Shown: one piece after another, positions 4,062 to 26,797 of the stretch
How positions within the stretch are numbered: position 1 is the first letter of the stretch
Layout of the letters: the number at the start of each line of letters is the position of its first letter
IMG/VR virus record: IMGVR_UViG_3300020043_005973
Span: 1 to 28,711 of that record
From: a virus
Lineage: Duplodnaviria > Caudoviricetes
DNA: 28,711 nt
Direction: 5' to 3' (one strand)
The notes under the pieces: model-generated
Databases searched by the model: none
Seen by the model: only the letters and a program-made list of their open reading frames with translations
What the model was told of the DNA's origin: nothing
Made by a program: the position numbers and the translations under genes

Positions 4062-4562
4062 TTAATTTTTTTTATAATGTTCATTTCTAATTCTTCTTAA
4101 TTCTCTCCTGTACTTGTTGATGTCCCTACTTACTGAATTAAGTGGTATTGTTGTTCTCTTTGAGAGTTTTGTTATTGATGCTCCCTCCTCTAAATATAGT
4201 TCGAATAGTCTGGCGTAATACCACCATTCTCCTTTCTTATGAAAGGTAATCATTTTATTCACCCAATCAAGATTGATTTCAGATTCTTCATATTCCTGTT
4301 CTTTGATGTTTGTATTGTTGAACTCTGTGAACTTAAACTTATTGTATTCGACATAATACTTTGATGTTTTTGAGTGTGCATTGTTTCTCACTATACGAGC
4401 GAAAAAAAACAACCTCTCTTTGTCACCGATCATGGGAGCGTTACGGTTTAGGAGAAGTTGCTCTATGCAAGAATGCAATAAATCATCAACATCTTGTTGC
4501 TTTGTTATTTTTTGACAAATCAGTTTTAGTTCGGAATAGTTTTCCGTAATCCATTGATTCAA
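4062..4562 (-). CDS. Sigma-70 family (ECF-like) phage transcription factor
   Basis: Region-2-like DVDDLLHSCIEQLL and region-4 HTH LFELYLEEGASITKLSKRTTIPLNSVSRDI; 166 aa. Confidence 0.7.
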   Translation of the reverse strand: MNQWITENYSELKLICQKITKQQDVDDLLHSCIEQLLLNRNAPMIGDKERLFFFARIVRNNAHSKTSKYYVEYNKFKFTEFNNTNIKEQEYEESEINLDWVNKMITFHKKGEWWYYARLFELYLEEGASITKLSKRTTIPLNSVSRDINKYRRELRRIRNEHYKKN

Positions 4563-4813: not shown

Positions 4814-4831
4814 TGTAATTCTTTTTTATTA

Positions 4832-4919: not shown

Positions 4920-5171
4920 TTATTTTTCAGTAAAACAATCGTGTGTAGTAAAATCTCTTGACAATGCAACTCCTACGATTGAGAAGTAAGTTTTTTCATC
5001 ACCAACCCAATCAACGAATGCCACTTCCTTTTCATCGAAGTTGATTACGAGTTGTGATCCGTCATTTAATACCCAATCAACAAGATTACCTTGTGTGGTT
5101 GCAATTGATTCATTCAAGAATACAGAGACCATTGAGATCATCCATACATCCAATTTGTTATTCTTTTTCAT
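4920..5171 (-). CDS. Hypothetical early protein (83 aa)
   Basis: Own TACCTTTG promoter and AACAACT-ATG leader; followed by a terminator. Confidence 0.7.
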   Translation of the reverse strand: MKKNNKLDVWMISMVSVFLNESIATTQGNLVDWVLNDGSQLVINFDEKEVAFVDWVGDEKTYFSIVGVALSRDFTTHDCFTEK

Positions 5172-5183
5172 AGTTGTTATTTT

Positions 5184-5459
5184 TTACAAAGGTAATGAAT
5201 TTTCTGATTCCAACATCAAATCTTGAATTTTTATTTTTACAATAGATTCGATGATTGATGTGTAAAGACTGGCTTCACTTGAATTTAAACCATGAAGCAT
5301 TGTATTTGAACCATAGAAATCATTACATGAATCGTACTGATCAAATATTTTTTCTACAATTTCATCCATACAATCTTCTGTAAGGAAATCACCATAATCA
5401 TGGCATAATGATTCTGTAATTGAAACGATGTCTTCGAGTGTTAGTTGTTTGATGTTCAT
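5184..5459 (-). CDS. Hypothetical acidic early protein (91 aa)
   Basis: Preceded by a TAATTTTG promoter and a leader shared with the gene starting at 8463. Confidence 0.7.
   Translation of the reverse strand: MNIKQLTLEDIVSITESLCHDYGDFLTEDCMDEIVEKIFDQYDSCNDFYGSNTMLHGLNSSEASLYTSIIESIVKIKIQDLMLESENSLPL
5187..5194 (-). promoter_or_regulatory. Bacteroidota housekeeping promoter -7 element TACCTTTG
   Basis: Matches TAnnTTTG with TTG upstream; about 15 nt before the ATG at 5171. Confidence 0.7.
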
Positions 5460-5479
5460 ATTGTTTGTTGTTTAGAGAA

Positions 5480-6751: not shown

Positions 6752-7186
6752 ATGAGTAGACCTTTCATAGAAAGAAAAAGTCCCACTGGTGAAGACGGCA
6801 TGAGGGAATGCAGGGGATGTAACAAGAGGAAGACACTAAACTTTTTTTATAAGTCAGGAAATTATGTGGATGGGTATTCTTACTTGTGCAGAAGATGTTT
6901 CACTGACAGGAAAAATGGTGTTAAGGAATTTAAATTACCAAAGAAGGAAAACATCAAATCAACCAAAGATGACATGGCTAAAATGACCGTATGTTCCAAA
7001 CAGGACTACATGGACATGTATACATTCTTTGAGAAGATTGGTTATGACATTACAAAAAACATCTCACAACAATTCTGTGAGAAACATGATCTCAAATACA
7101 GAGACAGAAGACAACAAGACATTTCATTATACACACATGATGGCAAAAAAAATCCCCTCCATAGAAGTATGAAGGGGAAACTATAA
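6752..7186 (+). CDS. Zinc-ribbon protein (CxxC...CxxC), the only credible plus-strand gene
   Basis: CRGCNKRKTLNFFYK...DGYSYLCRRC resembles the N-terminal Zn ribbons of phage HNH/EndoVII-associated proteins; no HNH motif follows. Confidence 0.7.
   Translation: MSRPFIERKSPTGEDGMRECRGCNKRKTLNFFYKSGNYVDGYSYLCRRCFTDRKNGVKEFKLPKKENIKSTKDDMAKMTVCSKQDYMDMYTFFEKIGYDITKNISQQFCEKHDLKYRDRRQQDISLYTHDGKKNPLHRSMKGKL
7145..7178 (-). terminator. Rho-independent terminator for the lipoprotein operon, overlapping the end of the plus-strand gene
   Basis: TCCCCTTCATA-cttc-TATGGAGGGGA followed by U8 on the minus strand. Confidence 0.8.
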
Positions 7187-7554: not shown

Positions 7555-7566
7555 AGTTGTTGTTTT

Positions 7567-7848: not shown

Positions 7849-7864
7849 AGTGTTTTAATTTTTA

Positions 7865-7872
7865 CAAAGGTA
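7865..7872 (-). promoter_or_regulatory. Bacteroidota -7 element TACCTTTG
   Basis: Part of the repeated CCTTACCTTTGTAAAAATTAAAA cassette. Confidence 0.65.
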
Positions 7873-8080: not shown

Positions 8081-8102
8081 AGTTGTTGTTTTTTAATTTT
8101 TA

Positions 8103-8463: not shown

Positions 8464-8483
8464 ATTGTTTGTTGTTTAGAGAA

Positions 8484-9032: not shown

Positions 9033-9203
9033 TTAATTGTTTTGTGCAAAGTTATTAAATCCTTGTGAATCAGCCAACATCTCTTCATAAGCAGATTGTT
9101 CAGCCTTCTTTTGTTCCAACCACATTTCATATTCGTGGTCGAACATAATGTCGAATTCTTCATTCGTTAAGTAATCATCCAATAGTCTTTTAATTTGTCC
9201 CAT
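9033..9203 (-). CDS. Small acidic protein, 56 aa (MGQIKRLLDDYLTNEEFDIMFDHEYEMWLEQKKAEQSAYEEMLADSQGFNNFAQNN)
   Basis: Translated by hand; A-rich leader, upstream promoter and tight coupling to the next gene. Better supported than the track ORF 8963..9163. Confidence 0.7.
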   Translation of the reverse strand: MGQIKRLLDDYLTNEEFDIMFDHEYEMWLEQKKAEQSAYEEMLADSQGFNNFAQNN

Positions 9204-9226
9204 AATTTATTCTTTTTATTAGATTA

Positions 9227-9255
9227 AGTATAGGGTATAGGAGGGTAAAGGTCAA
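9227..9255 (-). promoter_or_regulatory. -35/-10 type promoter TTGACC-N17-TATACT
   Basis: Hexamers at 9255..9250 and 9232..9227 with an exact 17-nt spacer. Confidence 0.55.
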
Positions 9256-9265
9256 TAGATCATAC

Positions 9266-9376
9266 AAAAAAAAGACCGAAAGTGGGTAAACAATCGGTCC
9301 TCGTATAAATAAGAAGTTAGTGAGTGGAAAAAAGAATAATGACAAGGTGTAAAAATAAACAACAACTCACTAACAA
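9266..9376 (-). ncRNA. Candidate small RNA (~110 nt)
   Basis: Upstream TTG-N19-TATATTTG promoter (-7 element at 9387..9380); 10-bp stem (9374..9365/9325..9316) enclosing a 39-nt U-rich loop; terminal hairpin GACCGA...TCGGTC followed by U8. Confidence 0.5.
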
Positions 9377-9425
9377 TTACAAATATAATCGTTGTGAATT
9401 ACAACTCAAGCCCTACAAAAATAAT

Positions 9426-9923
9426 TTAAAAATTAACTGGTTCCTCAATGATGTCATCATCATCTTCTTCACTCAATACAATAGTTGTGTTTGGTGAAAT
9501 AGATTTTGTTGCACATCTGGCATAAGCCTCTTGGTATGTAAAACCTTTTGACTTTTCTTTTGCAATACACATACCCAACGCAGAATCTTCGGGTACATCT
9601 CCGAACTCTTCCAATCTTGACCAGTATTTGTAATAGGCATTGAATGAATTCAAACAAAATCCCAACCTTTCTTTCATGTTTGGAAATTGATTTTTCATCT
9701 TTGAATTATTGGAACATCTTGTAATGAAAGACCCTCTTCCCTCTGACTTTCTTGGTTGTATTACAAATAGGTCTTCTTTGTCTGTTTTAGACATCTTCTC
9801 TGATGATTTGGAGTAACATATAGCAGCAGCCTGTTCCTGTCCGTATTCGTCTATAATTGAGGAAATACAACGACTTATAAAGTCTTGTTCTGGCTCACCT
9901 TTTTTTCTTGATGGGATCGGCAT
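9426..9923 (-). CDS. Protein made of three small Cys-containing helical repeats, possibly head-associated
   Basis: IPSRKKGE..DFISRC...QAAAICYS / QPRKSE..SFITRC...RLGFC / ALGMC...EAYARC. Confidence 0.65.
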   Translation of the reverse strand: MPIPSRKKGEPEQDFISRCISSIIDEYGQEQAAAICYSKSSEKMSKTDKEDLFVIQPRKSEGRGSFITRCSNNSKMKNQFPNMKERLGFCLNSFNAYYKYWSRLEEFGDVPEDSALGMCIAKEKSKGFTYQEAYARCATKSISPNTTIVLSEEDDDDIIEEPVNF

Positions 9924-9924
9924 G

Positions 9925-10179
9925 TTATAAACTTGATTTTAATCTCTTATTCTCTTGATGTAATTCGTCAACCTTTTTCTCCAACTCTTGAATTTTAATA
10001 TTCAATTCGTGGATCTCTTGCTTCAAATCGTCAATAATATTCTTATAAAGATTCACAGCAAGTTCAAGGTTTCTTAATACTTGATTGTCCGTCTCTGCTT
10101 GTTGTCTTTTTTTACCAACAAACCAAGCGGCAATTCCTGTTAAGGCATTTGAAACAAATAATAATAAAGTCTCGTTCAT
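9925..10179 (-). CDS. Single-TM coiled-coil protein, holin-like
   Basis: N-terminal hydrophobic helix LLLFVSNALTGIAAWFVG, then KKR and a long coiled coil. Confidence 0.5.
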   Translation of the reverse strand: MNETLLLFVSNALTGIAAWFVGKKRQQAETDNQVLRNLELAVNLYKNIIDDLKQEIHELNIKIQELEKKVDELHQENKRLKSSL

Positions 10180-10788
10180 TTAACAACCATAAATACAAGC
10201 ATATTCAGGTCCCGCATAGTATGTCATACCAGGGAAATTGAATCTGTTTATGTCAGCAGATCCTCCTGTGTCAGGAATATGTAGACCAGAAAAATATTGT
10301 TTTCCAAGATGTGGTCTAATACCATCATTACTTGTCCACTGCCAAACAAGTGGGTATAAATTTGAATTCCAAACAATCTGTTCAATAAGTCTTGCTTCGA
10401 AGAATTGTGATCTGTCATCAGCCTTCTTCTGCATATATTCCATCTCTTTAATTGTTACAGTATTTTCTGCACCTGTAACAATACCATTATTTTTAATTCT
10501 CATAAAAATTGATGGTAATGCTTCTGCGTAGGCTGCCCAAATTAACATTGGAGCGGCATAAAAATTTAAGAAATTTTCGTTGACTGTTGAAAGAGTCGAT
10601 CCTGAAACTTGATTTAATAACTCAACATAGAATCGCGACCCTATAATATATTCTAACTTGCTTTGTTGTACCATTTGAATAAACGGTAAAAGGACAGCAC
10701 TGGTTACATTCTGATCGATGTCAGTAAAGTTTTTCAGTTTGTTCTCACTGATTAAACAAATATTTTGGGGGACTATAAATTGACTCAT
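10180..10788 (-). CDS. Putative head-tail adaptor/connector
   Basis: Directly after portal (TAATG overlap); LISENKLKNFT-IDQNV...PFI..VQ...IG..FY pattern recalled from Bacteroidota phage neck proteins. Confidence 0.6.
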   Translation of the reverse strand: MSQFIVPQNICLISENKLKNFTDIDQNVTSAVLLPFIQMVQQSKLEYIIGSRFYVELLNQVSGSTLSTVNENFLNFYAAPMLIWAAYAEALPSIFMRIKNNGIVTGAENTVTIKEMEYMQKKADDRSQFFEARLIEQIVWNSNLYPLVWQWTSNDGIRPHLGKQYFSGLHIPDTGGSADINRFNFPGMTYYAGPEYACIYGC

Positions 10789-12034: not shown

Positions 12035-14704
12035 TTATAAAGCGTAAGTAATTTTCATTATTCCACTACCTCCGTTTCCACCAACTCCCGCTGTTCCAAC
12101 TGCTCCACCTCCACCATTTCCTGTGTTTGCAGATCCATTTGCTCCATTACCAACTCCACCTGAACATCCATAACTACCACCACCAATAGAATAACCTGGT
12201 TGATTATTTGATGATCCACCCTGTCCTCCTGCGGCACCACTCTGTCCATTATTACCTTGACCTGCCGTTCCTAACCCTCCATTTCCTGAAACTCCACAAG
12301 AGTTTCTTGAATTACCTCCACCACCGTTTCCACCATCAGAACCATTTTGTGCTGTGTTGTTTGAAAAACCTGCCGCTCCACCTCCACCACCAATTGCAGT
12401 GAATGTTAAGAATGTTGAATTTGAACCATTAGATCCTGCTACACCAGTTCCACTTCCTCCATTACCACCATTACCAATTGTAACAGTTCCACCAGTTGTG
12501 ATTGTAAATGCTGTGAAGATTTGACCTCCGCCACCTCCACCACCACCGGCTCCACCTGAATTACCACCACCGCCACCACCACCGGCACCGGCTACTAATA
12601 ATAATTCAACTGATCCACCTTGAATAACTGTTAAAGTTCCTCCTGATGTAAATGTATGTGTTCTGAATCCACCGGCATCGGTCACAGTACCACCACTTAA
12701 AATAACTTTTGGTTGAGTAGGGCTCGGAGTATTTGTTTGTGTGATCGTTTGCGTTGGAGTCATCGTGTTAGTTGGAGTAACACTCGGAGTTGGAGTTACT
12801 GTTTGTGATGCAGTTTGAGTTGGAGTTGCGGTTTGTGTTGCACTCACACTTGGAGTTGGAGTTGCAGTTTGACTTGCAGTAATACTTGGCGTTGGAGTAT
12901 TCGTCTGACTTGCAGTAATACTTGGAGTTGGGGTTGAAGTCCTCGTTGGAGTCATCGTGTTAGTTGGAGTAACACTTGGAGTGGGGGTAGGCGTAACTAA
13001 CCATTGAGAATATAACCACTTATTTTCAAGTTGTGTTCTAACAACATCAATAGCAACTTGATTAAGAACACGATCAAATACCAATATTTCCATAACCTCT
13101 GAAAGAGCCAAGAATTGTGATGTGGATCCCGATGGACCACCGACAGCAATTGATGTTATTGTGGTTGATGTTGTTCCTGTTTGCTTGGTTGTTAATGTAA
13201 CACCGTTTAACTGAACTTGTGAATTACCATTCGTTGTACCAGTTACAACACCCAAGAATAATCCTGATGATCTCGAAATCGTGTCACCTGAATTTTGTTC
13301 TAAATTTACAGACCAGTTGTCAGGAACAGCACCAACATAAACTCTGTCAGTTCCACCTCCCTGATTTTGTGAATATAAATAATAATTTGAATCGAAAACT
13401 GGCGAAGAAGTTGGACCATCCATTGAGAATGCAAACCCTTCGGATTCATCTCTACTAATACCAGCAACAAACATATATGTATAACCTGTGTCAGAGAATG
13501 AAATACCTGAAACAGACATAAATGTACCACCTGTTGAATTGATTCCATTGAACGAAACGCAATTGATTCCTGTCACTTGTGGGTTCAATGTAGATGCAGT
13601 ATAAACAGGTTGATTAACAGAATTTGATTGTATTAAATTATAACCATAAGGTCCTTTGTCGTTCCATTGAGAAACTTTGTTGTTGACATCTTTTGTTATT
13701 GTTGATGTGTCTGATGCATCAATCCAAAATCTCAATCCCAAATATGGCGGAGTAACACTCGGAGTAGGTGTCATCGTCATTGTCTGACTCGCAGTAATAC
13801 TCGGAGTTGGAGTCATCGTGTTAGTCGGAGTTGCTGTCGAAGTGCTTGTTTGCGTTGGAGTGGCAGTAGGAGTGCTCGAAACAGTCAAAGTTAATGTTGT
13901 TGTTGTGGTCGGAGTGGCAGTTTGCGTTGGAGTTGCAGTTTGTGTGTTAGTAGGGGTGTTACTCGGAGTTTGAGTCGGAGTGCTTGTAGATGTTTTAGTT
14001 GGAGTTGCAGTTTGGGTTGGTGTGTTTGTATTAGTTGGCGTGACAGTTTGACTCGCAGTAATACTTGGAGTTGGAGTCATCGTGTTAGTTGGAGTTGCAG
14101 TTTGAGTTGGAGTGCTTGTAGATGTTTTGGTTGGTGTTGCGGTCTGCGTTGGAGTTTTTGTTTGAGTGTTAGTTGGAGTCACCGTAGCAGTATTACTCGG
14201 AGTTTGCGTTGGAGTGCTCGTATTAGTTGGAGTTATAGTGGGGGTGGGAGTAACTGATGCTGTAACACTCGGAGTTGGTGAAGGCGGATTTAATTCACCA
14301 GGTGCAAAGATTATATTTGAGTTGTCCTCATCAGGAGAAATATACTCAATGTAATAATCATTTGTTGTATTGGCAGACATTGCGATTAATAACGCAAGAC
14401 CTGACTCAACTTTATTATAAGCGAGAGCAGGATTTAAGTTTGTTGATCCTGAAAACTGTTCATAGATTCCATAAATGTATTGTCCCTCATATGGGAATGC
14501 AATTTCACCAATACCTTGACCTTCAATAAATTCAAATTCATCATAACGAACTTGATGTGTTGAAATGTTAGGTAGAATAAAAGTAACTCTTTCCTTACTC
14601 ATTTTATGAGTGAAAGAAAATAACCATTCAGGATTCGCAAGTTCTGCGTTCTGTGAAACGGTTGTTATTATTTTATTTAATTGATTTGTTTTAAGTAGAA
14701 TCAT
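12035..14704 (-). CDS. Neck/head-closure-like domain fused to Thr/Pro stalks, a LamG-like domain and a glycine-rich domain
   Basis: ~140-aa N-terminal domain ([10 protein letters not shown]...[10 protein letters not shown]...VESG); two TP-repeat tracts; FWIDASD...VSQWNDK...EILVFDRVL LamG-like fold; [10 protein letters not shown]...[10 protein letters not shown]...[10 protein letters not shown] Gly-rich domain. ATG 14704 preferred because the GTG at 14722 lies in a hairpin. Confidence 0.75.
12715..13000 (-). repeat. Thr/Pro/Ser coding repeat tract ([20 protein letters not shown])
   Basis: Recurrent GGAGT/TGGAGTCATCGTGTTAGTTGGAG units on the plus strand. Confidence 0.9.
13750..14285 (-). repeat. 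Thr/Pro/Ser coding repeat tract
   Basis: Recurrent [19 protein letters not shown] and [17 protein letters not shown] units. Confidence 0.9.
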
Positions 14705-14717
14705 GTGCGTAAAAATA

Positions 14718-14747
14718 ATCACAAGGGAAAGTTAATCCCCTTGTGAT
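14718..14747 (-). terminator. Hairpin/terminator after the tail tube gene
   Basis: 10-bp stem ATCACAAGGG...CCCTTGTGAT followed by TATTTTT on the minus strand. Confidence 0.7.
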
Positions 14748-15361: not shown

Positions 15362-16589
15362 TTATGACAATCCGTTTGTAACAAAGAATTGTGGGAATGC
15401 GATTGCAGTTCCTAATTTCCAATTCACAGCCATTCTTACCTCTTGGACAGAGTTTTTGTTTTTAACTACTGAGGTTGTTTACCCTCAATTTCACCACTTT
15501 CCTTTTTAACTTATATGTGGTGTTCAGACTATATCATCACCTTGCGGTGTCGGATGCTCGTGTCGGTTTCATTGGTGTTCTACCTGTGTACCGTTAGTCG
15601 TTGAACCTTCCTGATGTCCCCATCAGGCTCGGCTGCTGATTGTCTTGTTAAAGAGTTTCCAGCAATTCTTCCGATTTTACAAGACCTCCAAGTTGTAATT
15701 TCTTGATTGTTAAGTCTTGTGACCACCACATTCTGTAAGAATCTTCGTCAGACATTAAGTCTGTTCCTACTAAGAAATATTGTTGTGCTGATCCTGCGAT
15801 TAAGTTTGATCCGTTAAGACCAGGAACACCAACAACTTTGATGTTTGTTTGTGGATGGAATACTTCATAAACTTGACCTAATGTTGGTTCACTGAAATGG
15901 AAGTTGTTCACATTTCTGATTGCAACTAAATAACATTTGAATTGAGCCTGACTCATAAAGATTACAAGATCTTCTCTACCATAAATGTTTCTGTCGAAAG
16001 CATTGATGATGTTGTCAACTTGTGCAAGAACATTGTATGCTTGTTGAACTGTTGAAGAACCTGTTACAGAACATAATGCTGTTTGACCAGTTAATTTAAC
16101 AACACCTGATGTGTTTGCAAGTAATTCTTTGAAACCAGAGAATGATGAAGTTGCACTTGATGCACCCCATAACAAATCTTCGTTATAACGCTTGATTTGT
16201 TTTGTTTGTAAGTCAACAATCGCTTGTTCGAAAGGAACATTCTCATTGTATGAACCAGCATTTAAATACTGACCAAGCCACAGCGAGTTGAGTTCTTGCA
16301 GACATAATGATTGGTTTACTTTTAACGCTTGAACTGTTAATGGAGCAACTGTAAATGTTACATCACCAGCGTCTGACCATCCACAAGTTGTACCTGTTTG
16401 AACAGAAAGAGTTTCAGAAAGTAAATTCACATTCATTGTCCCCTTAATTCCCGGAACAACATTACAATACTTCATTGTTTGTGGAGTAAGAACTGCTTCT
16501 GAAATGATGTCAGAATTCAATTGATCCACATAAGCACTCAACCCACCTAAATCGTAGTTGAAAGCCATTTTTGAAAGATTTTTTTTCAT
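15362..16589 (-). CDS. Major capsid protein, split by an intron: join(16589..15713, 15447..15362), 320 aa
   Basis: Follows protease and scaffold, with HK97-like size. Splicing gives ...RMWWSQD-F-QEVRMAVNWKLGTAIAFPQFFVTNGLS*, a plausible capsid C-terminus in place of the intron-derived LTIKKLQ...ETL. Confidence 0.9.
15448..15712 (-). ncRNA. Group I self-splicing intron, 265 nt, subgroup IA-like, no homing endonuclease ORF
   Basis: P motif AAUUGCUGGAAA, Q AAUCAGCAG, R GUUCAACGACUA, S GAUGAUAUAGUCU. P1 ACAAGACU/GGUCUUGU has U-G at the 5' splice site; P10 CUUGGA/UCCAAG; terminal G at 15448. Confidence 0.95.
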
Positions 16590-21726: not shown

Positions 21727-23244
21727 TTACCCTAAAAAACATGTTGAATATGTGGTACAAGAACTTCCTTGAATCCAAGTATAAGGATCACAAGTAACTT
21801 CTAATCCACCCTGAACACAAATAGGTGTTTGGTATGCTCCACCTTGTTTTACACAAATACATGCGGTATAAGTTCCATCACCATTGTCTAAAACAGGTAG
21901 AGATTGAATTAATTCTGTTTCAACACTTGCAGTTCCACATAATGCATACCTAACATATAAATCATTTGGAACTGTTGTATATGTTAAACAATAACATAAA
22001 CAATTTGCTTCACCTGATGGACTCGGAGTTTGTGTTTGCGTTGGTGTTACATTAAGTGTTGCGCTTGGACTCGGAGTTTGCGTTGGTGTTGAACCGATCG
22101 TCGCACTCGGCGTTGCTGTTTGTGTCATAGTTGGAGTGGGGCTCGGAGTCAATGGAATAACACCAGTAGGACATTCAAAAGTATTACAATTTCCACCGTA
22201 TATTGTTGGTTCCGGCATTCCTGTATAATTGAATATTTGAGCAACACCCATAGTATATTGAATACATCTATACCTTGTTCCATTTGTAGTGAATACCTCA
22301 TTAATCAAAGTTCCGAAACAGTTGTTATATTCTATTGAAGCAAATGATTCTTCACTGCTTCCTGTAACAGTAATCTCCATACAAACATTACTATTAGTAC
22401 AAGCGGTAGGGGTGGGAGTCATCGTTGGAGTTCTTGTCATCGTTTGAGATGGAGTTTGCGTTGGTGTTGAACCAATGGTCGAACTCGGAGTTTGTGTTTG
22501 AGTTGAAGTTGGGGTGGCAGTTTGTGTTCGAGTTAAAGTTGGGGTGGCACTTGGAGTAATTATTGGTGGACAATTAACATAAGTTAATGTTGCTAAACCT
22601 GAATTTCTCGATGGACCTTCTGCTGGGTATACAAATCCATTATAAGTAAATCCTGTATTGAATACGGCATCAATACCCAAAGAACCTGATCCTTCTCCAC
22701 AATCATTTCTTGCACCAGCCGTTAAACTATATGTAACATATGCCCCACCACCTGCGTTATTAGGGTAATAAATAACAGAGTGTCCCGTTGTTTCACCTGT
22801 GAAAAATGCGTATGAATTACCACTGAACGGTGAACATTCAATATAGAAGAATTCAGGTGTCCCTCCCGTTGCAATATATGCTGGTGATTGAGGAGAATAT
22901 TTATAATATTGTGTAAGACCTGATGATGCTCCTGTAAATTGAATATAAATCCTTTGACATACTGGCGGAGTTGGGCTCGGAGTCATAGTTTGCGTCGGAG
23001 TTCTCGTGGTAGTAACTGATGGAGTTAAACTTATGGTTGGAGTATTCGATGGAGTGACACTTGGTGTTGGACACATTCCTCCAATACTAAAATAATCACA
23101 TAGAATTATTGGTCGATCTATGTCCATACAAATTGAATCACCATAGTTTAAATAAAAGAAACCTGAAACCCCTTGGCATGTTGTTCCTGAAAGTTCTTTT
23201 GAACCTGAAAATTCATCATTATTTGTGTAGACAATACAATTCAT
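21727..23244 (-). CDS. Putative virion appendage protein: four Cys-rich modules joined by three Thr/Pro stalks
   Basis: GTTCQG, YNNCFG and YALCG modules separated by TPTQT repeats; lies in the tail operon. Confidence 0.7.
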   Translation of the reverse strand: MNCIVYTNNDEFSGSKELSGTTCQGVSGFFYLNYGDSICMDIDRPIILCDYFSIGGMCPTPSVTPSNTPTISLTPSVTTTRTPTQTMTPSPTPPVCQRIYIQFTGASSGLTQYYKYSPQSPAYIATGGTPEFFYIECSPFSGNSYAFFTGETTGHSVIYYPNNAGGGAYVTYSLTAGARNDCGEGSGSLGIDAVFNTGFTYNGFVYPAEGPSRNSGLATLTYVNCPPIITPSATPTLTRTQTATPTSTQTQTPSSTIGSTPTQTPSQTMTRTPTMTPTPTACTNSNVCMEITVTGSSEESFASIEYNNCFGTLINEVFTTNGTRYRCIQYTMGVAQIFNYTGMPEPTIYGGNCNTFECPTGVIPLTPSPTPTMTQTATPSATIGSTPTQTPSPSATLNVTPTQTQTPSPSGEANCLCYCLTYTTVPNDLYVRYALCGTASVETELIQSLPVLDNGDGTYTACICVKQGGAYQTPICVQGGLEVTCDPYTWIQGSSCTTYSTCFLG

Positions 23245-23257
23245 AATCTAAATAATT

Positions 23258-26200
23258 TTATATGGTACAAACGAAATTACAATTCTTGCTTGCTCCAACT
23301 GTTGTTAATATTAATCCTGGTCCTGATGGCGCTGAACCTGTAATTTGGTAAACATAACCACTTGGGTATAATTCAGAATAGAAAGTTCCAACATTTACAG
23401 ATGATCCTGTCGGGAATGCTACAACAACATTAGAAGCAACATAAGAACAACCAGGGTAATTACATGTATACTCATCAGCATAATACAAATCGAAACTCGT
23501 TGGAGTAGAACTCGGGGTTGGTGTTGAAGTCGGTGTAGCCAATATTGTTGTTGAGGTGGGGGTTGGAGACAAACCAGGAGTGGGAGTTTGCGTCGGAGTT
23601 CTCGTGGGAGTTGGAGTGACACAACTGTCAGCACATAATTGTCCCCTAACAATTGGACCATCACCACTTACTGTTCCTTCATTAGCACCAATACAAGGAA
23701 TTGTATAGAACTCACCTTGACTAACAAATGCATCTGAAACAACTCCATCACAATCTCTCCATACTAATAGACCTGAACTATTTGCTGGTCCAAATGTATA
23801 TTCATAACATTTAATACAAGAACAAGCCGCACATGTAGCGTGACTACTAACCTCTGTGTAATCTGTTTCAATTGTAAAGTATGGTGTGATTCCTGAAACA
23901 CAATATTCTGTAAATGAGATCGGACTATAAACTTTATGAACTAATCCTAATGTTTCAAGAGATGAGTTTGTTGAGTTAAAATATATTTCTGTTGAAGTGT
24001 TACAAACAACTCCTCTATAAACGAAATACCTGTCATCACCTGGCTCTTCTTGTATAAGATCCATTGATGTTCTTGCACTACATCCACAATCACTGAAAAC
24101 ATTTACAAGATTGTTTGTATAAGCAGATCCAATGAAGTATTGATTGTAAGTATAACCTGAATTATAACCTCCAATCTGAACATTGTAACAACCCAATGAA
24201 TTATTGTCTGTGTCATAAAGACTTACATAATTATTTGCGTAAGCGTAAAGATGGTAGTTAAGATCTGAATTGGAATGTAGTTCTGCACCACCAGCACAAG
24301 GTATTAGATCATAGTAGAGAACTCTATGACCAGGGTATTCCTTTGTTAATTTAATTAATTCAACATCACATATACTTGGTTCTGTAATGTTATAGTTAGT
24401 GATCTTATTGATTCTAAAATAAGTATTGTTGATTAGAATTTTTTCGTTCCATCTCAATTGTTGAATCTCTTGTGGGTATAAATAAATCTTACATGCGTAG
24501 ATCTTATTTTCTGCACTGATTAAATCATCAACATAAGGTTTGTAATAGATGTCATATAGATCTTCTGATTGGAATACAAATTCTGATGGTGTAATGTCAG
24601 TTCTGTCTTCCCCTCTAAAATTACAATAGTGGGAGAATCCTGTATAGGCAAATGGGTATGTTGTAAATCTGTTTAGATTGTTAAATCTGTCTTGTTGTAG
24701 TCCATCCATATACCAGTATTGGAATGGTGATCCAAAGAATGTTCCACCACAAGTTGTACCTGTTGATGTAACAGAAAATACAGGGTATGGAAATAATACA
24801 TAAGGTGCTCTCAATGATGTTGGATCTCCACAACTATTCACTGTATTAGATCCTACTGATGCATTAAAGTTTTGTTGTATTCCATCACAATCGTCATAAT
24901 AAAATGTTGCAGCAGTATTGGTTGTAAATGTCCAACCTGAACTACAAATAGTTGTCCCTGTTTCTCCACTTATTCCAAGAAATCCGTAGTTGTCAACTGG
25001 TAATGTTGGTCCTCTGAATATTAATTTGGGTAATACCTTGAAGGGAACGAATGTTTGTTCTGATTGACCATCCTTGTCGACTGTTTTAAGTTTCGACATG
25101 GATCCCAATGTTAATAAGGGAACATATGCGTTCTGTATTGTTATGTCGATCGGTGATGAGAATTGGTAATCGAATTTTGTGATCGTGTCTTTATACTCCA
25201 AACCTAATTTGAATTTGTCTGTCCCAAATGTTCTGTTGGTTTGTGTTTTAAAGTCTTGGTTTGCATAATCCTGATCGGTACGGAATTCGTATTGTAATGT
25301 TCCGTTCAATAAAGATGTTGTTGGGTATATGGATTGTAGTTGAGAGAAATCAACTTTTGTTGTCCAATCTAATACAGGTCCCTTTCCAATATAATCAACG
25401 ATCGGTTCAACAATCAATGATTTTGGTTTGTCGGGATTGGGAACAATAACAAGGTTAAAATACTTGTTGATCGATGTAATGAAATCAAGTTGAGAATAAT
25501 CATTGTTAGGGAATTCAAGAGCATAATCAACTGTTGACCCCGATGGAATAATTCTTGGACCACTTAATATTTCCGCACTAAAATTTGTTATATTAACATA
25601 CTCACCTGCAAAAATAAATGACACATTGGATTCCCCTGTGAATATAAAGGCTTGTGTTACATCAACGGTTGTTGTTCCTGAACAATAATTTGATGCTAAT
25701 AATGGTACTGTTGAAACACCATCATCAAAATACAAATACAAATAAGGTGGAACTGTAAAGAAGTTGTCACAAGTATTTGTCGGAGTTACTGTGAATTGTA
25801 ATCTCCATGTATAAGTTCCTTCGAACTCTGGTATTGTTCTTATGGTTGTTGAGTTTGCAGAAAATCCAAGTGAGTTACAAGTAACACCTGTTGAGGGGTT
25901 TGTGTATACACCAGTGAAGGTTGGTCCAATAAAATCATTTATGTATTTGTAACAAGGGATGATTGCGTTTCTTGGGTATATGGTTTCATCCAAATATTTC
26001 ATTGGCATAAAGAAGTGTTCAAAATAACTTGTGTTGAAAAAGTCAGATTGAATTTCATAACCAGCATCACGACAAATTGCTTCGTATAATGCTTTAACCT
26101 GAATGGTTGGCTTAAAGTAATAGTTGTTTACAGGAGTGTTTACATTGTCAAAAAATCCTGGTTGTGGATTATAACTTATTGTTCCACCTGAATTGACTGT

Positions 26201-26797
26201 TGGTGTGAATTGAACCAGTGGTGAGACTGCTGCGTTTACTGTTGTCCCTGTTAAATACTCATAACCAATATTGTATAATCCCCATAATGTTGATCCTGAT
26301 TGGTAAGAATAATTTGTTGATCCTGTTAGGTTAAACAAGTTGGGATCGATCTGTGATTCAAGTATAACATTCTGTGTGAATGGATGTGTTAAACCAGAAA
26401 GATCTGTGTTGAATAAAAACTTGTCACCAATGTTTGCTGCAAGGTCCCCAATTTGATTATAAAATGTTGTTTGGTATATGATCTCATCATTAGCAATAGA
26501 CACCCCATTTAGTCTTATATGACCTTGTAATATTTCATAACCATCCCAAAGTAATACTGCATCGAATTTATTGTTCGGATCGAAGTCTAATGGTATTGAG
26601 TTTAGATCATAGAAGAAGTTGAATATTTCATTGTTTCTCTGTGAACCAGGAACAGAGAATGCTTTCGAGAATGCTGAATTCTTTTTTGTGATGTCTTGTA
26701 GTTCTGCGAATGACAGAGACAACAATACAGGTTCATCTTTGTAGAGATCAAGGAATTTATAAACACCAGAAACTTCTGTTCTAATCTGTAACGCCAT
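23258..26797 (-). CDS. Large tail tip/baseplate hub-like protein with Cys-rich and TP-repeat extensions
   Basis: LDLYKDEP..LS...QDI.K.NS.FSK.F.VPG...NN.IF start, QLDFI.SI.K.FNL and I.INN.YFRINKI..Y...CDVELIK, typical of Bacteroidota siphophage tail proteins. Confidence 0.75.
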   Translation of the reverse strand: MALQIRTEVSGVYKFLDLYKDEPVLLSLSFAELQDITKKNSAFSKAFSVPGSQRNNEIFNFFYDLNSIPLDFDPNNKFDAVLLWDGYEILQGHIRLNGVSIANDEIIYQTTFYNQIGDLAANIGDKFLFNTDLSGLTHPFTQNVILESQIDPNLFNLTGSTNYSYQSGSTLWGLYNIGYEYLTGTTVNAAVSPLVQFTPTVNSGGTISYNPQPGFFDNVNTPVNNYYFKPTIQVKALYEAICRDAGYEIQSDFFNTSYFEHFFMPMKYLDETIYPRNAIIPCYKYINDFIGPTFTGVYTNPSTGVTCNSLGFSANSTTIRTIPEFEGTYTWRLQFTVTPTNTCDNFFTVPPYLYLYFDDGVSTVPLLASNYCSGTTTVDVTQAFIFTGESNVSFIFAGEYVNITNFSAEILSGPRIIPSGSTVDYALEFPNNDYSQLDFITSINKYFNLVIVPNPDKPKSLIVEPIVDYIGKGPVLDWTTKVDFSQLQSIYPTTSLLNGTLQYEFRTDQDYANQDFKTQTNRTFGTDKFKLGLEYKDTITKFDYQFSSPIDITIQNAYVPLLTLGSMSKLKTVDKDGQSEQTFVPFKVLPKLIFRGPTLPVDNYGFLGISGETGTTICSSGWTFTTNTAATFYYDDCDGIQQNFNASVGSNTVNSCGDPTSLRAPYVLFPYPVFSVTSTGTTCGGTFFGSPFQYWYMDGLQQDRFNNLNRFTTYPFAYTGFSHYCNFRGEDRTDITPSEFVFQSEDLYDIYYKPYVDDLISAENKIYACKIYLYPQEIQQLRWNEKILINNTYFRINKITNYNITEPSICDVELIKLTKEYPGHRVLYYDLIPCAGGAELHSNSDLNYHLYAYANNYVSLYDTDNNSLGCYNVQIGGYNSGYTYNQYFIGSAYTNNLVNVFSDCGCSARTSMDLIQEEPGDDRYFVYRGVVCNTSTEIYFNSTNSSLETLGLVHKVYSPISFTEYCVSGITPYFTIETDYTEVSSHATCAACSCIKCYEYTFGPANSSGLLVWRDCDGVVSDAFVSQGEFYTIPCIGANEGTVSGDGPIVRGQLCADSCVTPTPTRTPTQTPTPGLSPTPTSTTILATPTSTPTPSSTPTSFDLYYADEYTCNYPGCSYVASNVVVAFPTGSSVNVGTFYSELYPSGYVYQITGSAPSGPGLILTTVGASKNCNFVCTI

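Follow-up and report, generated by a model that had tools for sequence, protein, structure and literature searches.

Small RNAs that act on translation start regions are known both from Bacteroidota and from bacteriophages. In Bacteroides thetaiotaomicron, the trans-encoded RNAs GibS and FopS present an AT-rich single-stranded seed, followed by a terminator, to several starts that lack Shine-Dalgarno sequences, and they repress these mRNAs by pairing with the start region (PMC7366714, PMC11697453). Among phage RNAs, c4 of P1 and P7 is encoded beside its target, carries complementary elements that probably lie in loops, blocks the ribosome-binding region and varies in specificity between related phages, and PreS of lambda and VpdS of VP882 are phage-encoded, trans-acting and tied to phage development (PMC12197685). 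A search of the open-access literature, mostly at the level of titles and abstracts, found neither an RNA that represses a whole class of genes in a phage that seems to be lytic nor such an RNA from a Bacteroidota phage, and the available text of a 2025 review of phage sRNAs (PMC12197685) holds no word beginning 'Bacteroid' or 'Flavobacter'.

The locus considered here lies in a 28,711-nt stretch of viral DNA (IMG/VR record IMGVR_UViG_3300020043_005973; the whole stretch is called the window below), and was originally predicted to encode an sRNA whose loop is antisense to the initiation regions of the phage's own early genes. Such an RNA would be like GibS and FopS in layout, but these are host-encoded, have metabolic targets and carry the seed at a free 5′ end, whereas the seed of the present unit would be a loop closed by a 5′ stem. 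It would be like c4 in its position beside a target, but c4 controls ant in temperate Escherichia coli phages, whereas here one large loop fits many early leaders; PreS and VpdS differ in being Hfq-dependent RNAs of temperate Proteobacteria phages with largely host mRNA targets (PMC12197685). Membership of the GibS/FopS family was considered and rejected (no Rfam match), as was membership of the C4 antisense RNA family (no match to the Rfam C4 model). The CI RNA of P4 is a phage RNA comparable to c4. More generally, neither the unit in the window nor the loci of 12 relatives gave a gathering-level Rfam match, a local search returned none below E 1.3, and ARAGORN found 0 tRNA or tmRNA cloverleaf genes in the window. 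The genes downstream of the unit, where an antirepressor of a temperate immunity region might be expected, have no PHROG or Pfam names.

The window comprises most of a tailed phage of about 31-33 kb with recognised terminase, portal and tape measure genes. Nearly all of its genes are on the minus strand, the only clear plus-strand gene (6752-7186) being endonuclease VII-like (PHROG 2633, E 3e-5). By portal, the only cultured relatives are the Nonlabens phages P12024L/S (27% identity); among the best 80 terminase relatives in species genomes, 79 are titled Bacteroidota (30-40% identity), and Bacteroidota is the likely host phylum. A close prophage was not found: the 202-aa neighbour protein has no relative among the species genomes and the terminase relatives are only 30-40% identical. 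The phage is apparently lytic, and 0/5 near-complete relatives carry an integrase or resolvase; P1 itself is a plasmid prophage, however, and absence of an integrase thus does not exclude a carrier state.

The term 'early' is used here for the small genes downstream of the unit, a presumptive class so called because 60/230 of their starts have a TAnnTT[TC]G box of their own, against 1/211 structural starts. This box fits the Bacteroidota promoter consensus (PMC6847099, PMC7366714). Starts in all classes were called by one simple rule (ATG, at least 35-40 codons, A-rich leader), by which some are wrong or missed. A gene at 4062..4562 (minus strand) may encode a sigma-70-like factor, a candidate driver of a late programme; this is a lead only, from language-model feature look-alikes at 0.97-0.98 named sigma-70 family, and the protein has no Pfam match over the cut-off.

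The predicted unit, i.e. promoter, stem, loop and terminator, is present on the minus strand with the loop as originally quoted. A TTG resembling a -33 element (9407..9409) lies 19 nt upstream of the -7 box TATATTTG (9380..9387), the Bacteroidota promoter consensus being TTTG/TANNTTTG (PMC6847099). The 5′ arm of a 10-bp closing stem follows at 9365..9374, and transcription is predicted to start at its first base, 9374. The start is placed there because of the spacing of the -7-like box, which precedes the stem by 5 nt in 14 and by 3-5 nt in 20 of the 33 lineages compared below (none was found in four). The stem encloses a 39-nt U-rich loop (9326..9364; mean unpaired probability 0.81), the predicted pairing region, which holds the runs complementary to early starts, and is completed by the 3′ arm at 9316..9325. 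An intrinsic-terminator-like element (9266..9302, fold z -3.9), with a hairpin beginning at about 9300 and a U8 run at 9273-9266, closes the unit and also ends the structural operon, whose last gene (9426..9923, minus strand, 165 aa) served as the anchor for finding relatives; the hairpin sits between this gene and the terminator. As a 117-mer it folds with z = -5.1, and 0/200 shuffles were as good. A short palindrome occupies 9393-9407 (minus strand) in the promoter spacer, and L001 and L007, the two closest relatives, lack an intact copy of it; when a longer RNA of the window is folded, the palindrome region takes up the 5′ arm and the stem is lost. One metatranscriptome holds 6% of the window's words in four contig pieces, none of them over 9171-10673, and the unit is therefore uncovered.

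Relatives were fetched with neighbouring proteins plus one motif, two of the searches being confined to the best 80 of 102 and the best 80 of 171 matches, and a script using the terminator as search anchor found 51 distinct junctions among 215 anchored loci. Of 53 candidates, 9 were dropped (6 hairpins elsewhere, 3 re-delimited), and after curation at least 57 distinct units, all from uncultured phages, occupied the same slot, forming 33 lineages when clustered at 75% identity. One family (L003/L006) has no large-loop stem by the rule used, only a 9-bp hairpin with an 11-nt loop and 1/12 own starts matched, and was excluded from the unit counts. In every unit the 5′ arm is rich in purines and the 3′ arm in pyrimidines, the loop measures 19-65 nt and a terminator follows, and across the 33 lineages the predicted RNA is 83-140 nt long, with motifs in kept positions at the sequence level. 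The stem is better than all 40 shuffles in 26/33 lineages (stems had been picked for score), and the sequences of the arms vary between lineages while pairing persists. The internal non-Watson-Crick stem pairs of 31 lineages comprise 11 G-U, 0 A-C and 8 other pairs under a scoring blind to strand, and the presence of G-U with no A-C points to an RNA on the gene strand. Two-sided changes occur at 5/12 stem pairs in the one subfamily in which covariation is readable; a consensus fold over 16 divergent units had 0 pairs, because their stems do not align by sequence.

The loops are 55% U, with unpaired probabilities of 0.63-0.88 in 10 units. CCCAU occurs in 23/33 loops (0.6 expected) and CCAUU in 27/33 (2.0 expected), counts reached in 0/1000 shuffles; the kept core CCAU would be an anti-start-codon. 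The loop of the window itself has GUCAU in place of CCCAU. Outside the predicted transcript, the box of the unit's promoter is a canonical TAnnTT[TC]G in only 3/33 lineages and TATTTA in 23/33, and a ACCAAGATA-like box, a candidate regulator site, is found in the promoter spacer of 23/33 lineages (for example in L014, just upstream of 7013); exact copies of it occur at most once per long record, and it is absent from the window's clade. Taken across relatives, the small RNA-like element is real and conserved by position and structure, as judged from sequence comparison. In L123, near 12329 (L330), the early region contains a further small hairpin, with CCAU in its loop, directly before a terminator.

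In the window, the matches named by the original prediction are largely as described. Just downstream of the unit, a promoter-like site TTGACC-N17-TATACT (9227..9255, minus strand, as are all sites given here; a similar site exists in relatives) precedes the first early gene (9033..9203), which encodes a 56-aa acidic protein with no PHROG or Pfam match and nine homologues, all unnamed or hypothetical. Its leader holds an 11-nt match to the loop (9207..9217; duplex -11.4 kcal/mol), and genes of its kind are the best-supported target class in the cognate tests below. Matches of 10 nt lie in the leaders of 8463 (8469..8478), 5459 (5465..5474) and 4813, a helix-turn-helix protein gene (4818..4827); those at 5459 and 8463 have nine of their bases in the loop. 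The 11-nt matches before 8080 (8081..8091) and 7554 (7555..7565) do exist, but only 8 nt of each come from the loop, the other 3 belonging to the stem. The start region of 5171 (5158..5190) pairs both through its leader (-12.3 kcal/mol) and through 11 nt matched within its first codons (5158-5168). Part of the 9-nt match before 7848 (7858..7866) falls upstream of the start site predicted for that gene itself.

With the loop and two stem bases per side, 8/12 early starts of the window have a run of at least 9 nt (shuffle mean 0.92, 0/2000 as high), and the loops of 29 other phages match 0-4 of the same 12 starts. The excess is weaker with the loop alone and dinucleotide shuffles (6/14, mean 1.76, p 0.012), late starts of the window also exceed chance (4/16, mean 0.79, p 0.007), and the duplexes are modest, at -5 to -12 kcal/mol. 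When pairing energy was compared with shuffles, as had been proposed, the 34 called starts of the window proved no better than 100 shuffles (z 0.17, 0.13, -0.94). By complementarity to early starts, the window is among the strongest cases.

The main test of the antisense idea, a comparison between phages of how well loops fit their own genes, was passed. For the first early gene (n=30), the phage's own loop pairs at -10.88 kcal/mol against -9.43 for loops of other phages (p 0.0004), the longest perfect run is 7.83 nt with the own loop and 6.74 nt with foreign ones (0/20000 permutations), and runs of at least 9 nt occur in 12/30 own pairs against 9.7% of foreign pairs. A control on promoter DNA was null, as was a coding-region control by run length; by energy, however, the coding regions also had a cognate excess (p 0.015; pairs p 0.002), and part of the energy signal is thus confounded. 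The first-gene excess also holds inside clades, with p no higher than 0.0021 at any of three cut-offs, and in tree-independent pairs, drawn from a tree covering the 47/57 units with the tree protein, the own loop had the longer run in 10/12 untied cases (15 pairs, p about 0.007; coding control null), and the better energy in 10/15 (p 0.05-0.08). For later early genes, 23% of own and 11.6% of foreign pairs have runs of at least 9 nt (n=20, p 0.0002), a signal that fades in the tightest clades (p 0.12-0.27) and stands at 10/14 in tree pairs (p about 0.05). The own-versus-foreign test was null for late (structural) genes (n=27).

Over 30 phages, 49/214 early starts have a run of at least 9 nt, compared with 16.6 for dinucleotide shuffles (maximum 28 of 100) and 18 for reversed loops, whereas late starts are at chance (10/183 against 8.7 expected). 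The runs centre on -14 to 0 of the starts; in Flavobacterium, adenines at -3, -6, -12 and -13 promote initiation (PMC6847099). ATGGG starts are found in 39/230 early and 6/211 late genes. The paired words differ by lineage, with loop/leader combinations UUAUUCUUUUU/AAAAAGAAUAA in the window, UAUUGUUUUU/AAAAACAAUA in L042 and UAUCUAUCU/AGAUAGAUA in L011, and a single swap separates the relatives L128 (UUAUCUUU/AAAGAUAA) and L136 (UUGUCUUU/AAAGACAA). In the early region of L112, four consecutive genes start Met-Gly and 7/10 early starts match the loop at 10-12 nt, making this phage the best natural test case besides the window. On these comparisons, a loop tends to change along with the early-gene leaders of its own phage, most strongly for the first early gene.

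Several results go against pairing with early leaders. The loops of the two closest relatives match 1/9 of their own early starts but 5/12 of the window's; their first gene is 53% identical to that of the window amid genes at 79-99%, and a swapped module is a possible, after-the-fact explanation. No long match was found at the own early starts of L002 (0/7), L021 (0/6), L055 (0/8), L113 (0/5) and L119 (0/10). The covariation that was proposed as a check is accordingly borne out in part, in that stems keep pairing and loops track their own leaders over the relatives, but it fails in the closest relatives and in several lineages. Swaps between nearest neighbours were not significant (energy 15/23, p 0.105; runs 7/10, p 0.17), a whole-genome cognate test was null for best and top-5 targets (p 0.46, 0.13), and energy ranking over all called starts gave a weak signal across 16 records (mean z -0.3 to -0.95). 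G-U pairs are not enriched at the flanks of matches (12/66 vs 24.5%), and, among 17 long matches at genes that have a -7 box of their own, 7 extend past the predicted +1 on its upstream side, which would limit their pairing to mRNAs started at promoters farther upstream. No association was detected between UUUUAC loops and GTAAAA following early boxes (p 0.29), or between CCCAU loops and ATGGG starts outside the first-gene family (15/151 vs 3/58, p 0.41).

The explanation put forward here, held at slightly better than even odds on these sequence-level results, is that the unit is a gene for a trans-acting sRNA with a predicted length of about 108 nt, which would block translation of the phage's own early genes; when the form in which the loop is part of an mRNA tail is counted too, antisense action on early leaders becomes reasonably probable. 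Transcription would run from the -7 box and start at the first stem base (or the RNA would arise as the tail of the structural message), and the stem would protect the 5′ end while keeping the U-rich loop open. The loop would then pair in segments with the first codons, the AUG(GGA) and the leader, and would cover early mRNAs from about -14 to +6, their leaders having a predicted length of about 14 nt. Such pairing would occlude the upstream adenines used by Bacteroidota ribosomes and block ribosome entry, and early proteins would be shut off as the RNA accumulates during lytic growth. A broader reading, for which the odds are clearly below even, is that in lytic Bacteroidota phages one self-encoded RNA acts as master off-switch for the early-gene class, with loop and leader addresses that co-evolve and with incoming related phages maybe silenced too; within this reading the leader would serve as an address because the hosts start translation on short A-rich leaders.

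Other explanations account for parts of the same evidence. The antisense loop may have no gene of its own and be the 3′ tail of the structural (late) mRNA, whole or cleaved, in which case late timing would be automatic. The place of the hairpin, downstream of the last structural gene and ahead of the terminator that ends the operon, suits this idea, as does the canonical box in only 3/33 lineages (TATTTA in 23), but it is made unlikely by the box 3-5 nt before the stem in 20/33, by the ACCAAGATA-like spacer box kept in 23/33, as for a regulated promoter, and by the different fold of the longer window RNA, in which the stem is lost. Another proposal is that the loop duplicates an early leader in inverted orientation and does not pair with mRNA, acting instead as a DNA site or as an RNA that binds protein or senses a nuclease; its matches would reflect its origin or a shared binding motif. 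Lineages match different leader words, which argues for repeated fitting and not for one old copy, G-U-only stems favour RNA, and the anti-AUG holds the most conserved letters; these points leave the inverted copy improbable, even though the plus strand of the loop resembles the promoter-leader stretch of 8080 and 5171, some matches run past the predicted +1 into upstream sequence, the flanks have no excess of G-U and close relatives match poorly.

It is also conceivable, if doubtful, that the conserved ACUCCCAUUU core is directed against a single start or a small number of starts in host mRNAs (AUG GGA GU), or against early genes of related phages that act as competitors, own matches being secondary. 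The core is kept beyond what the own targets need, since the first gene offers only AUGGGA, the loops of L001/L007 match leaders of the window better than those of their own genes, and RNA-based exclusion is known from STnc6030 and c4 (PMC12197685); set against this are the cognate excess over other phages and the stand-in host starts, which matched at shuffle level (3.0% and 1.4%; a small sample, and not the true host). Silencing in cis, by an anti-leader that acts on the first early gene only when transcription has run through the terminator, would suit the strongest covariation, which is with the adjacent gene, but is very improbable: read-through RNAs fold without loop-leader pairs in 7/10 phages including the window (1.8-5.5 pairs in the other three), and matches also lie kilobases away. 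Hardest of all to credit, and largely refuted, is that the plus strand encodes a small protein starting near 9339, or that the arrangement arose by chance in AT-rich DNA. The window does have a 52-codon frame with an A-rich leader there, expression of which had been named as one of the findings that would speak against an sRNA, but the frame is not conserved (17 codons in L001/L007); frames opposite the loop CAU motifs vary in length between 1 and 99 codons and have no peptide in common, and structure and loop core are conserved.

Returning to the trans-acting sRNA, the original reading as a multi-target silencer is upheld for a conserved RNA unit whose loop tracks the phage's own early leaders, and is not upheld for general host targeting or the protease. 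Specifically, 328 starts from two stand-in Bacteroidota genomes (162 and 166 starts, of which 3.0% and 1.4% matched) gave matches at shuffle level, in a small sample that does not include the true host, and the 9-nt match at the protease start 19235 is present in the window while late genes across the family are at chance. Timing is the weakest step of the mechanism, and early-to-late action is presumed. The unit lies at the end of the structural operon, and in most lineages it has a promoter unlike the early boxes, but TATTTA is no commoner before late than before early genes (19/211 vs 26/230), and the promoter of the unit cannot therefore be classed as late.

The locus bears on how Bacteroidota phages shut off early genes. 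Matched and mismatched natural loop-leader pairs (L128 vs L136, the window vs L097) make the proposed pairing testable by reporters in Flavobacterium johnsoniae without phage culture. If the proposal is true, it (i) would offer a compact design for gene repression in bacteria that lack Shine-Dalgarno sequences and (ii) with silencing of those related phages that fit, would amount to an RNA-coded exclusion system without a repressor protein.

Further features were observed in the structural region of the window. Long Thr-Pro repeats occur in proteins encoded at 12035-14722, 21727-23244 and 23258-26797 (minus strand). A group I intron (RF00028, 58.5 bits, E 1.3e-12) lies at 15504-15747 (minus strand), in the 3′-terminal part of what is probably the major capsid gene, and relatives match this open frame to residue 293 only. 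In L322, the homologue of this gene (13469-14624) matches in two pieces, residues 1-45 and 36-293, which suggests an insertion at a different site.
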